Under the pieces are notes generated by a model. It saw nothing but the letters and a program-made list of their open reading frames with translations, was not told the origin of the DNA and did not search any database. From positions 1 through 64,000 of IMG/VR virus record IMGVR_UViG_3300032093_000041: a stretch of 64,000 nt of DNA; one strand, 5' to 3'. Origin of the DNA: a virus. The first letter of the stretch is position 1, and every line of letters starts with the position of its first letter. Of this stretch, positions 34,857 through 64,000 are shown in pieces. A program made the translations under genes and the position numbers.

Positions 34857-37800
34857 GTGCAGGATGATGTACTAAAAAACAAACTGCTAGGAATGGCATC
34901 TTCTAAAGATGCAAAACTAAGCACGGCTCCTTCTTCATCTTCTAAAAAAAATACAGACGATGAAGTCAAAAAAGAAGATAAACCAGAGAAGCCGTCTAAG
35001 GCTCAGTCTGAATACGAGCAGTTTTTAATTGACTGGGAGCCGTCAGACCCATTGCCGTTTTTCCCACCTGGAAAAATTATCAAGCTATGCCACCTAAGCA
35101 ATAACCCAATGGTTACTGGGTCGGACTATTACATAGACAACCCTGAAACAACTAAAAAAGCTTATAAACCTAATAAAAAAAGTATTGAAGAAGAGTTTTT
35201 AGAGGTTAAAAACCTTGGGCCAAAACTGAGTCGTGGTCTTTCTTCTCTTCTGGCAATGGTTGCTAGGTCTAGAGGGTTGTGGGTAGATGACAAAAATAAA
35301 TTGCGTTGTCCAGAAGGAACACCAGCTGCCAACCAATTTACAGACATAACCGGAAGTAACTGCTTTATACCTTCGCCGTCTGCCGCAGCGCAAAGTGGTG
35401 CTCGGGCAGCAAGAAGAGCATTTGGTACAGCAGAACAAATGGCAGCGGGCATGGGGCAACGTGTTGACCGCAGTCCATCTGGTCGCTCTAATGCTGCAGC
35501 AAGATATTCTCCTTCAGACTTGGCGATGCTTCAGGCAGGAATGGACATTGGCGGAAGAATGGCGATGCTAGGCGGAGCATCTCCAAGCTTGAGACAAACA
35601 CGAGGAACGGGAGGGGCATCCAAAACCGGTATGCCCATTTACTACATCGGCAAAAGAGAAGCGATAGCAAGAGGTAAGGACCTAACGCGCGCTGCGGCTG
35701 AATTAAAAAGACGATACTCGACAAGTGCGCAAGCTTCAGAGGCAATCGTTTACCCCCCTGGCTCACGGTTTGCAGGTCAACCAATTGGAGATGTTCTAAA
35801 TAAGGCTGACTTCATGAGGGCAATGGAAGAATTCATGCCCAATGTTGACCCCAATGAATTTTCTGAATACTTCGACAATGCAATTCCTGGTGTTTTGAGT
35901 CTTAACGACCGCAGAGCGTACGTGAGAATGTTCGAAGCTTTTTGGCAAGCAACAATTCAGCAGATGACCGAACAGCCAGACGCTTACAAAATCATCACAA
36001 CATTTGAGATGATGGATGACATTAACACTGCTGTAGAAATCCAGGTTGACCCGTTTTCCCCTAGTCCTCAAAGCGGAGGAAGACTGGCTGGTGTTGGTGC
36101 CATACAAATGGCTAGACAAGCTGGCCTTATGGCAGAAGGTGGCGCTCACGTAAGGTTCAAAATAAGCCCATTTGGCATGTGGCAGCAAGCCAATAATGTT
36201 GGGCGCAATATGGACAGCGACGGCTCTGGGTGGTGGGATAGCCGCGAGGGCAGGATGCATTACATCGCTGTTCATGAAACAGGCCACGTTGTCGACTTCT
36301 ATCAAAAACTGAAGGCTTTTGGATTAGACCCTAATGCTATGCAAAGATATACGGCTCCACAAAGAGTCGTTAACGTACCAGGTGCTGGTCCCTCTGTTCA
36401 GCAAGACAAATATAACGGCGCGTGGATAATTGACTGGTCACAAGTGTCGAATCCTATGAACAACCCGTTCATAGATGACATGATTCAAGCTGCTGCACGA
36501 CTAAAGGGCACCCAGTATACCGGTTCACGTTTTAGTGGCCGAAAAATAGACCTACAAGATGACATGAATGCTTTTTATGCAAACCTTGTTTGGGGCTTTC
36601 AAAACAACATAAACCACGACCCAAGCGACTTGCCACTTATGGCTGCGCTCGTTGGTGGCGCATATGCGACAGACTCCGGTGTAGAGACAAGAGCTGAGTA
36701 TTTTGTCTATAGGCGTTTATTTGGAGAACTAAGAGGAGCGCAATCAGCAACACCTGGTTTCAACCCTTTCAAAGACCAATTGCAGAGCGGTCCATTTGAC
36801 GCGACTCCAAGCGATATTGACTTGCGAACAACTTCCGCTAGAAAGAATCAGAGCAACAACCTGCTCACTCATTTCTTGGATGCATGGGCAACACAGGAAA
36901 GACAGAGAGCGTTAGAGCCTGGTGGAGCTTTGTATCAAATCATTCAGCAATTACCACCAGGGCAAGCCATACCGCAAAGCATTATTGAAGACTTTGAAAG
37001 AAACGTTGCCGCGGATACGTTGGCAAGACTGAACAAACTGGGGCAGGATGTTTTTGGTGTAGCCCCAAATCAATGGAACATCAGTGGTCGAATGGGGAAC
37101 ATCCAAGGCCCTTCGAGCAGACCACCATCACTTCATGCTCAAAGAGTAAGAACTGCTGTTCGCTCCAACAACATACGCACTACACGTGGCAAAAAGCAAC
37201 CCAGCGTCAGCTATGGAATAAGTGGTCGGATGGGAAACCCAGACCCAGTAAAACCACAGCGTCCTCGCGAACCAGACAACGGACCATTTACTGGAAAATT
37301 CCTGGATGTACTCCGTGGTTCATCTACGTGGAAACAATTTGCAAAAAAATACCGCGACCAAGAAGTTGTTTTCTTTGATTATGAGACCACCGGGTTTGGT
37401 GATGACGGCAACATGCCAGTGCAAATTGGCGCAGTAAAAATGAAGAATGGGAAAGTTGTTGAGCGTTTCAATGTCTTTGTAAACCCTGGAATACCGCTGG
37501 GTGATTGGGCCAAGAAGAATCTTAAAGACGACAAGGGGCAACCATTGACTGATGAATGGCTTGCTTCAAAAGCATCACTAAAAGAATCTCACGAAAAGCT
37601 ATTAGAGTTTTTTGGTGAAGATGCTTTACTGGGAGGTCAATACACTCCATTCGACCTAGAAGTTTTAGAACGAATACTTGGGCAGGTTGGCCTGGAGTAC
37701 AAACCGGCTGGGGTTATCGACTCAAAGGCAATGGCCGACGAAATACTGCCACGATGGACACCGGAAAACCCAGATGGTCCAACAATGATTGACCCAAAAA

Positions 37801-63800: not shown

Positions 63801-64000
63801 CAGCTGGTTCAGGCAAGACTACAGACAGAAAAACCGGCGCTCACAATATCCCAACACCAGGGTTTGCGCTCCATGTTGATGCTGATGAAATAAAAACCCT
63901 TCTACCCGAGGCAAGAGCACTTCATGCTGCCGGAAACCCAATGTGGGCGAATGCTGTTCACGAAGAATCACGTGTAATAGCGGACCTTGCACTGCAAGAA
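54827..64000 (+). CDS. Giant polyvalent protein 4 (at least 3058 aa, 3' truncated): DUF5872-like | unknown domains | Nudix | HTH array | J-domain | zeta-toxin-like kinase
   Basis: Manual translation from ATG 54827 (MTDTQNIDIEQKDVLG...) found no stop to the window end; Nudix box ~60422-60490, HPD J-domain ~62750-62938, GGPAGSGKTT ~63794. Confidence 0.88.
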   Translation, partial: MTDTQNIDIEQKDVLGAPRRVRTTDPDVFSDPESARVAARRLGCIGIRRYLNRSGGESWMPCTNESDYRKYSGIGVSGRRFRRQQLERDIRQITGRGKLAKKTLEEAVETKASKKNNYTKPELRERIKQRIMAGSEGGAPGQWSARKAQMLAQAYKKAGGGYKTGGKSKTQRSLSSWTKEKWTTSDGKKARRGSYTRRYLPAKAWSKLTPAQRAATNRKKIQGSRSGEQFVPNTDAARTARKRSVRGVKHVEFYDGIETKSIDGLIEEKALSRRSSRRTLRTPGALRPRLGATGQDMNPATARDEDLDGLVLEGIPTINRGRGVIDPTPGGRPSRWVPRMRPQRTQAPTPEEKPQPRRQLLQRPERLPKPKAEKVRESKLNWLPEDADKWTEDDAQRLLDTQKASGLSYGEFAKQNGLFANDVRESVERQKSRRKKRISAFRKNNPKLFAAVNSFGAVKDEAMEAVSRGKVNNWGSLVSWAFKDNDLKRQRLNDRAVNDLFNNVSNGLDPDGKSDVVLGFVPSRTKQGEMTKTFARANNLPDGFVSRYKTPRTAIQPARRITSTAERAERRGERRVGRISRDIEATARAFERFDAISGRMGGISGRMATPSGPDSQWTNQEKAQWKAGQWRKRFLFDEALSTARVNLSPEMQAHIAKYPDAATAARAILDLSDQDLDKLFKGHNDALKAANVAIKPPRKDELPLLPSEVAAAAQIKRPLVRSFLDEYKKMAPNGTLSRLDVDVLSNEDIEELFNRYILPEMVDPTKLDAAGVIDVAQRISQPGQENSPLRLLDNLAYMAGDDAMSLEARRRVLQEKLAAGVAQGTMTPAQQQATQNALDALDEELAKLIADYEAGKPLDSSIPLQPLDDPRQMPRWAGGRRALSFEDPVTADDYIMFLLENNDIGFHPEWGPITKPEWENWSEDIQERAAEAERVYREGGELEAKDAIDALNAEYQQWTQVGLEAGWIQEPEEDEEFEEPQPERPIRDEFGVLDEDWVWNTEHGSPEELGVTDDPATWAQHPDNVEDDGVTLIPLDELEELILKYAPKQFQADLLEILKPSEWTDPHNGHIDQRYIDLPPELIDYFVGQAMGTMPPTPSSSGQMPTPNLGGIQGDGVGLSDPGGPRLRKGIPFIPRNINWDSALRMFQRILNKQGKQASSKGSYATASRQYDPALGVYDDWGALQLQNQFVEAAKEARELYVTGTGQDSRKAREQVWNLLQSGRTPQEISHELIIFGADQPDTNRPPQPIDLRDLVKAAATQYAIDNNIKTSDVTKLLNAADQAFNSDTARQEAFRRSQLERLRDDLTRLFSGQSPQQIISSIDGLIEETERKKWFADQAYRIERGHDARLRKAALDLAESYPVPTARRAIFMEPDGTITDSPSRRAKALYQEPYTGEVTDDDTRGWPQAFDEGYDPTQISRARHANRIYRWWRQNWGYIERNENGEITREYVGPLQGTLKAHQLHARKYGNEGLAGTTAYATRTADSRVQQLREVKRTIEGARQEGRGMGISGFMRSGGPNLYDEYSRKAARVLVSGRRKNKPSSMLLGYDSDEMPITRAMRTAFSGGSGKFLGASNEHSFAALMNPENVDYFKHLSPVEKDYFRALYSNPDFVVAVSKDVTAPLPNRTRGASTVSPDEAIINAFRSSMDATRPTISGQMGLRRTLSNASRVARYNPERWQREYLTARNSFRMTSPFRGKKKQNYKLEQITLKDSVFKPVEGLYLVDADTKNVIDGPFKSDELGLLASEKAKGAETSVISKNYPRPWEQMPEIQELIANGVSNELRDFMTLDSHKISDIRSTVYDTIEGKINQYALDLDKGVPQKASDTAIFSRDPDTGALMVLLIQRAFGPHKDDTGAWVLPGGFADPGETALETALRELEEEVGLKVSPTDARVKQIGTITAPDWDVRFTKGVEVSGTALFVSPDAAFKAGDDALRAQWFPVQDIADGKLPIGFGHVAWIKNAMALEVDDPANYGPDYESLRTGLDRVERATRARNKELIEISNSWRKELNKGRAKADKIKLFDEKNLGSYSAWELAPSDDMMRLGSISRMRLMGREVTPESIAADVERTRENRLSRVGSNFGPSISGRMGEGFENNMNDMHLRGMSSDEIKNKLRQENGVSEEDINRYVLYSGIQLSKTSDNVSASERKMFDEMISSGGSIRDLAKKNKISFTEAMDVVVKVESSIGNREPAINAALRKAIMNDSFISGAEKAAMVQRLHGASRASVAKFMGMSVERYGEVEASIIDNLKARNPKMFKSAGAWSSNPESLFAEQDIFMRYVHGKQPLNRIAEDLGMTEKMVDGIVKRYARWKNSNAPLERAAIKQSISQFGSALNAGEIQMMRRLSDGENIFQFSERTNMPKKAAIRMYNSAMRKMHMESGVSPLSRNFDANIYKAIPKEWISPSFLFEKNPPKATRAISGKMSDVAKSANKFNAEKRSYMTSPMSALREKVKDIRQEMRDQIQNLSSTSAYMHPVFGGQEGIDKMAALGAYIKRTIDESVLEAVVDAARKSGSRFSGDREEIAKRAMNKARKSLMEDLWMKREMIDFSLDMHEMIESASWPWRMWQPDSPEWQRHRNIPELMETYKTNTPKGRQAYINAGFYMPLGDNEMFEFLNAVEENNSISGRMSNPRQWAQSRDLYDIIGVSETATDEELKKAFRAKSRVLHPDVNNSPDATEQFKELGFAWETLSNSRLRNQYDSWRAGRTSRQSSSARPNNTDIADDDIDVSQYTDQDLYLYDDKGRLWPRHNANRDDWPTAPFTQSTVFPQRQWVEKEFDEWSDWTRHGIQPSRPAGSALWGEGRGTRDLGGDGEIDDDGQGGPGPSSGPRGPFNPTSGSPANAYFVEQQVRRDLGPDATDEEVLAELIRRMTGGGRGPSMSSSPGSISGRMSSSFPPLDDSVQKRLGLQNLPSSYDQSELTKQHPKLTFDVYKANIGEPSVEVTTTFGGKSNVSKYRYDNVYRPIIDALVAGVQRPTGGKRKFVSVGGPAGSGKTTDRKTGAHNIPTPGFALHVDADEIKTLLPEARALHAAGNPMWANAVHEESRVIADLALQE

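Follow-up and report, generated by a model that had tools for sequence, protein, structure and literature searches.

A short peptide motif, [IV]-S-G-[RKQ]-M-[GSA], recurs between the modules of four giant proteins encoded in the head module of an uncultured phage (IMG/VR record IMGVR_UViG_3300032093_000041), whose single 105,678-bp contig begins with the 64 kb hereafter called the window. The recurrence is genuine and far from random, the motif is conserved throughout the clade to which the phage belongs, and each related lineage spells it in its own way across its genome. Most probably it is the code at which capsid-cargo polyproteins are cleaved; we assign a probability of roughly 0.65 to the reading that the giants are loaded into the capsid and cut at the motif, which would co-evolve with a phage protease.

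A recurrent motif in four giant proteins

Translation of the open reading frames (ORFs) returned all 11 exact ISGRM copies reported in a first-pass annotation of this DNA, together with its ISGKM, ISGQM, ISGFM, IGGRM and VAGRM variants and an SSGRMG copy at 31531 inside the ORF of the prohead protease; as that annotation also stated, no copy was found in the minus-strand tail and recombination genes. The giants and their sites are listed here, where "tag" denotes a short conserved element treated below as a candidate loading signal.

Giant 1, 34857..40028, plus strand, 1,723 aa: IGGRM at 35547; ISGRM at 37080, 37218, 38070 and 38547; zincin-like module at aa 262–741 (HETGH, 36273–36287); DEDDh exonuclease module between 37233 and 38069
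Giant 2, 43059..50411, plus strand, 2,450 aa: RCP tag at 43596–43655; single ISGRM at 45657; the protein itself is present even in cargo-poor relatives
Giant 3, 50800..54603, plus strand, 1,267 aa: DPTPGG-type tag at 50998–51105; VAGRM at 51109, directly after the tag; ISGRM at 51613; ISGKM at 53002; DUF3626 module at aa 1023–1202
Giant 4, 54827..64000 and on to genome position 66610, plus strand, 3,927 aa: DPTPGG-type tag at 55712–55819; ISGRM at 56612, 56633, 61091, 62708 and 63494; ISGFM at 59360; ISGQM at 59795; ISGKM at 62093; NUDIX at 60317–60676; DnaJ at 62753–62938; Zeta-toxin-like unit from 63761

Giant 4 has two further sites past the window end (ISGRM at 64802 and VSGRM at 65663), and two of its copies stand in tandem, 7 aa apart.

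A scan against a shuffled background revealed strong enrichment of the motif. Within a 41,657-aa ORF set, SGRM occurs 14 times where composition predicts 0.41, and ISGRM 12 times against an expected 0.02; shuffling the giants 200 times never gave any 4-mer more than six copies. The strict motif has 18 copies within the giants (9,367 aa) and a single one in the remaining 32,290 aa, namely the SSGRMG of the protease ORF. SGRM is confined to the four giants and the head-protease ORF and is followed in every case by G, S or A, in agreement with the first-pass annotation. The free codon usage that it described was likewise seen, with Ser encoded by TCN or AGY, Arg by CGN or AGR and Gly by all four of its codons. 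Since the codons vary synonymously, selection acts on the peptide. An internal translation start, a Shine-Dalgarno sequence and a nucleotide element of the form xxG-x-ATG were ruled out as explanations by the same free variation, which extends over Ser, Arg, Gly and Glu codons.

Module borders and lineage-specific spelling

Comparison of the motif positions with Pfam matches placed RNase_T, NUDIX, DnaJ and Zeta_toxin each within one inter-site segment, and no Pfam domain overlaps a site. The RNase_T/DEDDh domain of giant 1 (aa 838–1018) lies between sites at aa 788 and 1072, and the NUDIX domain of giant 4 (aa 1831–1950) between sites at aa 1657 and 2089. The DnaJ domain (aa 2643–2704) begins 11 aa after the site at aa 2628–2632, close to the 9 aa first proposed, and Zeta_toxin begins at aa 2979, following a site at aa 2890. 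These brackets had all been predicted from the sequence, but two of the accompanying labels were not confirmed: the "OGFr-like" unit has no Pfam match at E ≤ 0.1, and the "HTH array" comes down to one weak HTH_28 match.

AlphaFold2 models of giant 1 (aa 1–1200) and giant 4 (aa 2440–3639) were obtained with alignments built from the relatives introduced below, which were shallow (14 rows). The giant 1 model contains two confident blocks, aa 262–741 (the HExxH module) and aa 800–1071 (the DEDDh exonuclease), the latter matching the fold of the PolC exonuclease with a Z score of 20.1 over model residues 806–1049. Stretches with a predicted local distance difference test score (pLDDT) below 50 cover residues 742–765, 767–797 and 1072 onward; two of them open precisely on an ISGRM, at residues 742 and 1072, the site at 788 lies inside another, and the IGGRM at 231 falls within the low-confidence stretch 163–261. 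In the giant 4 model, which has sites at 189, 451, 887 and 1174, the segments below 50 are 181–194, 434–457, 890–902 and 1130–1200. Three of these four sites lie inside such segments and the fourth at a segment edge, and the segments separate confident J-domain, Zeta-like and GNAT-like folds. Over both models, seven of eight sites are in segments below 50 and the eighth straddles the start of one; as about 32% of the residues in each model score below 50, placing 8/8 sites there by chance is unlikely. With every modelled site in or at the edge of a linker, the predictions support the location of the motif in disordered linkers at module borders.

A portal protein search returned 80 IMG/VR loci with 59–99% identity, and the full portal-to-capsid region was compared in twelve relatives (G000 denotes the phage studied here). 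All but one of the twelve have the same architecture, with giants of 1,000–6,494 aa. The exception, G009 (L113), has a head module of just 19 kb that lacks giant 1, polyvalent cargo and any copy of the motif. Modules are gained and lost at motif copies: G001 is without the 287-aa GNAT-like module of giant 4, and the gap falls exactly between two copies. The Nudix and Zeta modules adjoin in G005, three motif-bounded modules stand between them in G000, and the Zeta module alignment begins at most 2 aa from a site in both phages. Among 41 giants, 90 of 720 BLAST alignment ends abut a site, compared with 37 ± 6 for randomised sites. These sequence comparisons support the view that the motif delimits units gained, lost and reordered between relatives.

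A scan of the related phages revealed the same linker layout, respelled in each lineage. Every lineage has its own over-represented word, present in 10–28 copies per genome.

G001: ISGRM, 14 copies
G011: IS/TGKM
G004 and G008: [IV][ST]G.M
G006/7: ITGAM / ITGSM, 14 copies
G010: PSGSM, 20 copies
G002: DSGAM, 23 copies
G003: EAGM, 18 copies
G005: D[AG]EAGM, 28 copies
G013: [DSN]AGM, 24 copies
L048 and L058: LSG[AS]M
L047: GP[VT]GSM

Common to all spellings is a core consisting of a small or acidic residue, G or A, any residue, an invariant Met and a small residue. At homologous junctions the module is kept and the word goes with the lineage, as in SGEMT VNRGVPDD (G002), EAGMT VNRPVPMD (G003) and EAGMT VNRGVPED (G005); a second homologous pair reads SGAMS GLTNRYGG and SAGMS GLTNRDGV. 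Between G000 and G001 the motif is 83% identical and its 20-aa flanks are 54–56% identical. Uniformity within a genome, difference between genomes and varying codons together point to one trans-acting, co-evolving reader. A site-specific protease would be the simplest such reader, and concerted respelling is the pattern that would be expected of sites read by one co-evolving enzyme.

In the sister lineages G009 and L079–L082 the head module is reduced to the protease, the scaffold-like protein, the 686-aa protein, giant 2 and the capsid protein, with neither polyvalent cargo nor any G.M motif, and L081 carries DGDGDGF-x-NP-x-TGRDD repeats in its place. In G002 (L089–L092), G003 (L093–L096), G005 (L097–L100) and G013 (L119–L122) the portal-to-capsid region measures 60–66 kb and includes single ORFs of 5,251–6,494 aa, and the first giant is joined to the prohead protease. 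A search of 50,697 phage records with the head module and the giant 1 N-terminus gave no blastn or tblastn match.

Head module and candidate loading tags

The minus strand of the window carries the large terminase, recombination genes (Erf-like, exonuclease, RuvC and ParB-like) and the genes of a contractile tail, among them sheath, baseplate and a 1,715-aa ORF. On the plus strand, the order from 28189 is portal-MuF, the 785-aa S78 ORF, a scaffold-like protein, giant 1, a 214-aa ORF, a 686-aa protein, giants 2, 3 and 4 and an HK97-type major capsid protein, so that the capsid gene is set apart from the protease and scaffold genes by about 31 kb of giant genes. The components other than the giants are as follows.

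28189..30477, plus strand: first gene of the head module, a portal protein with a fused MuF-like domain (Pfam Phage_portal 1.9e-50, Phage_Mu_F 4e-07; phrog_2662)
30568..32925, plus strand: prohead protease ORF, 785 aa (Pfam Peptidase_S78 3.5e-11, DUF6321); S78 domain at aa 1–190, with H70, S134 and H166 at nt 30775, 30967 and 31063
33092..34582, plus strand: scaffold-like protein, acidic and Met-rich, with a PepSY-like domain (Pfam PepSY 27.6 bits)
40997..43057, plus strand: 686-aa protein with an RCP tag at 41384–41443 and one ISGSM variant at aa 563; beside giant 2 in all lineages
Genome 66936–68279, beyond the window (L001:12936-14279): HK97-type major capsid protein (phrog_10)

In the protease ORF, the S78 domain is followed by DUF6321, the SSGRMG copy (31531–31548), a Cys-rich and Pro-rich middle, a DGDGDG stretch (32176–32193) and a conserved C-terminal domain. 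The Cys-Gly-rich part (31870–32000, aa ~435–475; CGCGGSCGG...CQCGGSCGGSC) is kept in relatives, is followed by Pro-rich tandem repeats and is possibly a metal-binding or disulfide element. The scaffold-like protein has a Cys-rich N-terminus, an extremely acidic, Met-rich N-terminal half and a PepSY-like domain, a kind of domain known as a peptidase-inhibitor propeptide; its C-terminal 320 aa are 50–75% conserved in all lineages, including the cargo-poor G009. The major capsid protein shares 47–48% identity with its counterparts in Gordonia phages ChisanaKitsune and GMA6 and Brevibacterium phage Cantare, and this resemblance suggests an actinobacterial host.

Biochemically unrelated domains share one chain in the giants: giant 4 combines NUDIX, DnaJ and Zeta_toxin and has weak matches to HTH and GNAT, giant 1 contains RNase_T, and giant 3 contains DUF3626. 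Giant 2 gave no family match. The giants adjoin head-morphogenesis genes on both sides, with portal-MuF, the S78 protease and the scaffold-like protein upstream and the capsid gene downstream, and they belong with the polyvalent proteins as defined in PMC5512222.

Two conserved elements were found in these proteins. A 20-aa loop, RCP-x(8)-FT-x(6)-C, each time preceded by LEVK, is present in giant 1 (35304–35363), the 686-aa protein and giant 2, three proteins that have nothing else in common, and is invariant in 14 giant 1 orthologues. An element of ~36 aa, NP-x-TARDAD-x-D...LEGIPT-x-N-x-GRG-x-DPTPGG, occurs once each in giants 3 and 4 and in 2–5 giants of each distant lineage (G002, G003, G005, G010 and G013), including the giant fused to S78; in several giants the lineage motif follows within 4–8 aa downstream. 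By analogy with T4, the DPTPGG-type element together with the motif is a candidate cleavable capsid-targeting propeptide (PMC10052503), and the RCP loop is a candidate second loading or attachment tag.

Proposed cleavage, candidate enzymes and significance

We propose that each giant is a capsid-cargo polyprotein comprising one N-terminal loading tag, of RCP or DPTPGG type, and a series of autonomous modules joined by disordered linkers that carry the motif; among these modules are a DEDDh exonuclease, a Nudix unit, a J-domain, a Zeta-like kinase, some weakly GNAT-like units and many that are unassigned. The polyproteins and the protease would be co-assembled into the prohead, a phage endopeptidase would then cut at the motif to give pieces of 150–900 aa, and these would remain in the head and be ejected with the DNA. 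The motif would serve as a recognition code, and its spelling would differ by lineage because the code co-evolves with the enzyme. Processing of this general kind has precedents: the prohead protease of T4 (I/L-x-E) and those of SPN3US and phiKZ cut head and ejection proteins at short motifs (10.64898/2026.03.04.709575; PMC10052503).

Several observations weigh against this proposal. The motif is absent from the major capsid protein, the scaffold-like protein and the portal; when cargo and structural substrates (capsid, scaffold, portal and protease) were checked for one common motif, the protease ORF alone among the structural proteins was found to have it, once. A capsid protein without the motif implies that this is not simply the capsid-maturation site reused. 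The KSIGQMF segment of the capsid N-arm does not covary with the lineage motif, and it was ruled out as a variant site, as [ST][IV]GQxF is found in all lineages whatever their motif; the corresponding segment is S/T-L-G-E-x-F in the Gordonia and Brevibacterium phages. Many module borders have no motif, and giant 2 has one site in 2,450 aa. No cultured relative with the motif was found; in the nearest relatives by capsid and protease (ChisanaKitsune, GMA6 and Cantare, 38–48% identity) the genes are separate and smaller and contain no such motif. Finally, the low pLDDT at the sites partly reflects poor alignment of variable linkers, the alignments being shallow.

As the cutting enzyme, we tentatively favour the S78 prohead protease over the zincin-like module of giant 1. 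The head module encodes a prohead protease with intact catalytic residues, of the S78 and not the S77 family, in which H70, S134 and H166 are invariant in 36 sequences. Its ORF has one site after DUF6321, kept in relatives as NP-x-[STA]-G-[RK]-M-G, and in G002, G003, G005, G010 and G013 the S78 domain forms the N-terminus of a motif-studded giant of 2,770–5,469 aa. Residues beside His70 track the motif class, HNWNE going with [IVLP][ST]G.M and HDWNS with the acidic DSGAM and [EDS]AGM spellings. The HDWNH and HDWNQ lineages have no G.M motif, and one of the two keeps a giant-1-type zincin. This apparent link between S78 residues and motif class is drawn from essentially one clade, which counts against the assignment, as does the fact that S78 is the most conserved protein of the module (75–94% identity) though the motif changes greatly. 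If S78 is the enzyme, it must also recognise the structural substrates that are without the motif in a different manner. The S78 enzyme would cut between Met and the small residue, M|[GSA]; this bond fits equally as well as the R|M bond. Self-cleavage by an N-O or N-S acyl shift was ruled out, since P1' is often Gly or Ala and provides no nucleophile.

Cutting by the HExxH zincin-like module of giant 1 (aa 262–741) appears rather unlikely, although it has several points in its favour. The module would cut at x|M, with Met in its S1' pocket, and would act either within the head or in the host once ejected. A hydrophobic residue at P1' is preferred by many zincins, and the invariant Met would suit such a pocket. 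Residues H473, E474 and H477 are invariant in all 12 motif-bearing lineages examined and in 14 orthologues, and the module is absent from the motif-less G009; this absence does not discriminate, because G009 is also without cargo. The module is confidently folded, with HExxH in a helix after beta strands, and it evolves fast like the motif (34–39% identity or undetectable). Weak Atlas leads point to clusters of site-specific zincins (Pro-Pro endopeptidase, ATLF and M90). Nevertheless, L081 keeps the zincin yet has no G.M motif in 2,938 aa, and the module received no peptidase assignment from Pfam (E ≤ 1), a PDB profile search, Foldseek or VIA-align with the 1,200-aa model of giant 1, these searches returning only the DEDDh exonuclease. 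AlphaFold2 also leaves the module's own C-terminal ISGRM linker disordered and undocked at HExxH. The PepSY-like domain, considered as a regulator of the zincin, does not discriminate: a first BLAST search suggested its loss in the zincin-less G009, and a targeted search found it there with 50% identity. Processing of polyvalent proteins by an embedded peptidase was proposed by Iyer, Burroughs, Anand, de Souza and Aravind in 2017, who named no cleavage motif; the zincin alternative follows their prediction, and the zincin-like metallopeptidase (MPTase) domain is the commonest hub domain of these proteins (PMC5512222).

Two further alternatives involve no cleavage. An uncut motif could be a short linear docking motif, bound by one partner such as the capsid interior, scaffold, portal or a chaperone, for packing or threading of intact giants. 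Disordered linkers, conservation at the protein level and covariation by lineage would fit any single co-evolving partner, and the N4 virion RNA polymerase (vRNAP) is packaged unprocessed (PMC5512222). We nevertheless regard docking as improbable, because the separate conserved tags, one per giant, already look like loading signals, and because the motif marks the borders of autonomous enzyme modules in free order. The tandem copies 7 aa apart and the motif directly after a tag are in turn consistent with removal of a propeptide, and ejection of intact multi-domain chains of 4,000–6,500 aa through the tail is hard to picture. Less probable still is the reading of the motif as an evolutionary scar left by module shuffling, or as its joint, a cassette that travels with modules or favours recombination and has no biochemical role. 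The first-pass annotation had raised such a joint, and the part of this idea that stands is that module insertions, deletions and reorderings break at motif copies. Against it, the copies vary freely in their codons and so offer recombination no identity at the DNA level, orthologues conserve the motif more strongly than the residues flanking it, and the lineage spelling is common to all copies even at orthologous junctions, which requires selection by a common reader.

Among known systems, polyvalent proteins are likewise giant multidomain chains encoded next to MuF and portal genes, with unrelated enzymes in one chain (nuclease, Nudix, kinase-like and HExxH peptidase-like); for them, too, transfer along with the DNA and processing by a peptidase embedded in the chain are predicted. 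New here are the genome-wide linker word, its respelling by lineage, two conserved types of candidate loading tag, and protease-fused giants of up to 5,469 aa (unfused ones reach 6,494 aa). T4 gp21, phiKZ gp175 and SPN3US gp245 (PMC10052503) likewise combine a head-module protease, a short shared motif and N-terminal targeting propeptides, with cargo that stays in the head for ejection, as is proposed here. In those phages, however, mostly N-terminal propeptides of separate proteins are removed, at a Glu-ending motif also present in the capsid protein, whereas in this phage the proposed cuts would release up to ~10 modules at S-G-x-M-small, the protease is of the S78 (HK97) type rather than the S77/T4 type, and the capsid protein is without the motif. 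Polyproteins of eukaryotic RNA viruses also have many units per product and a short virus-specific site that is uniform within a genome; there is no homology, and here the virus is a double-stranded DNA tailed phage, the products are proposed to be virion cargo instead of replication proteins, and the cuts are predicted. MuF-associated polymorphic toxins and the Dar/DdrB internal head proteins of phage P1 are comparable as anti-host or takeover proteins loaded into capsids via head-morphogenesis partners, and DdrB is proteolytically trimmed before packaging (PMC5512222); they are, however, single-effector proteins with no repeated linker code. In the literature on polyvalent proteins, prohead proteases and polyproteins, we found no description of a recurrent inter-module word or of its respelling by lineage, and ISGRM appeared in no relevant paper.

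If the motif is the cut site, the ~9,400 residues of giants here, and up to ~20,000 in relatives, would become a parts list of injected proteins with defined ends. It would also be the first concrete cleavage code for polyvalent proteins, whose processing has only been hypothesised since 2017, and would provide natural pairs of protease and site that evolve together; it would also suggest that foreign cargo could be loaded into phage capsids and released by a simple rule, a tag plus a linker word. For annotation, the most over-represented x-G-x-M word of a lineage marks domain boundaries. We consider it close to an even chance that this uncultured, probably actinobacterial phage clade uses a general "cargo grammar", one tag per chain plus a lineage-specific protease word between modules, to pack 10–20 thousand residues. 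Were this grammar true, swappable effector modules would be packed as polyproteins, headed in some lineages by the prohead protease itself, and the cargo of one lineage would not be processed by another, word and protease having co-evolved. Bacteriophages would then have their first counterpart to the polyprotein processing of RNA viruses, and module boundaries would be predictable in thousands of unannotated giant phage proteins.

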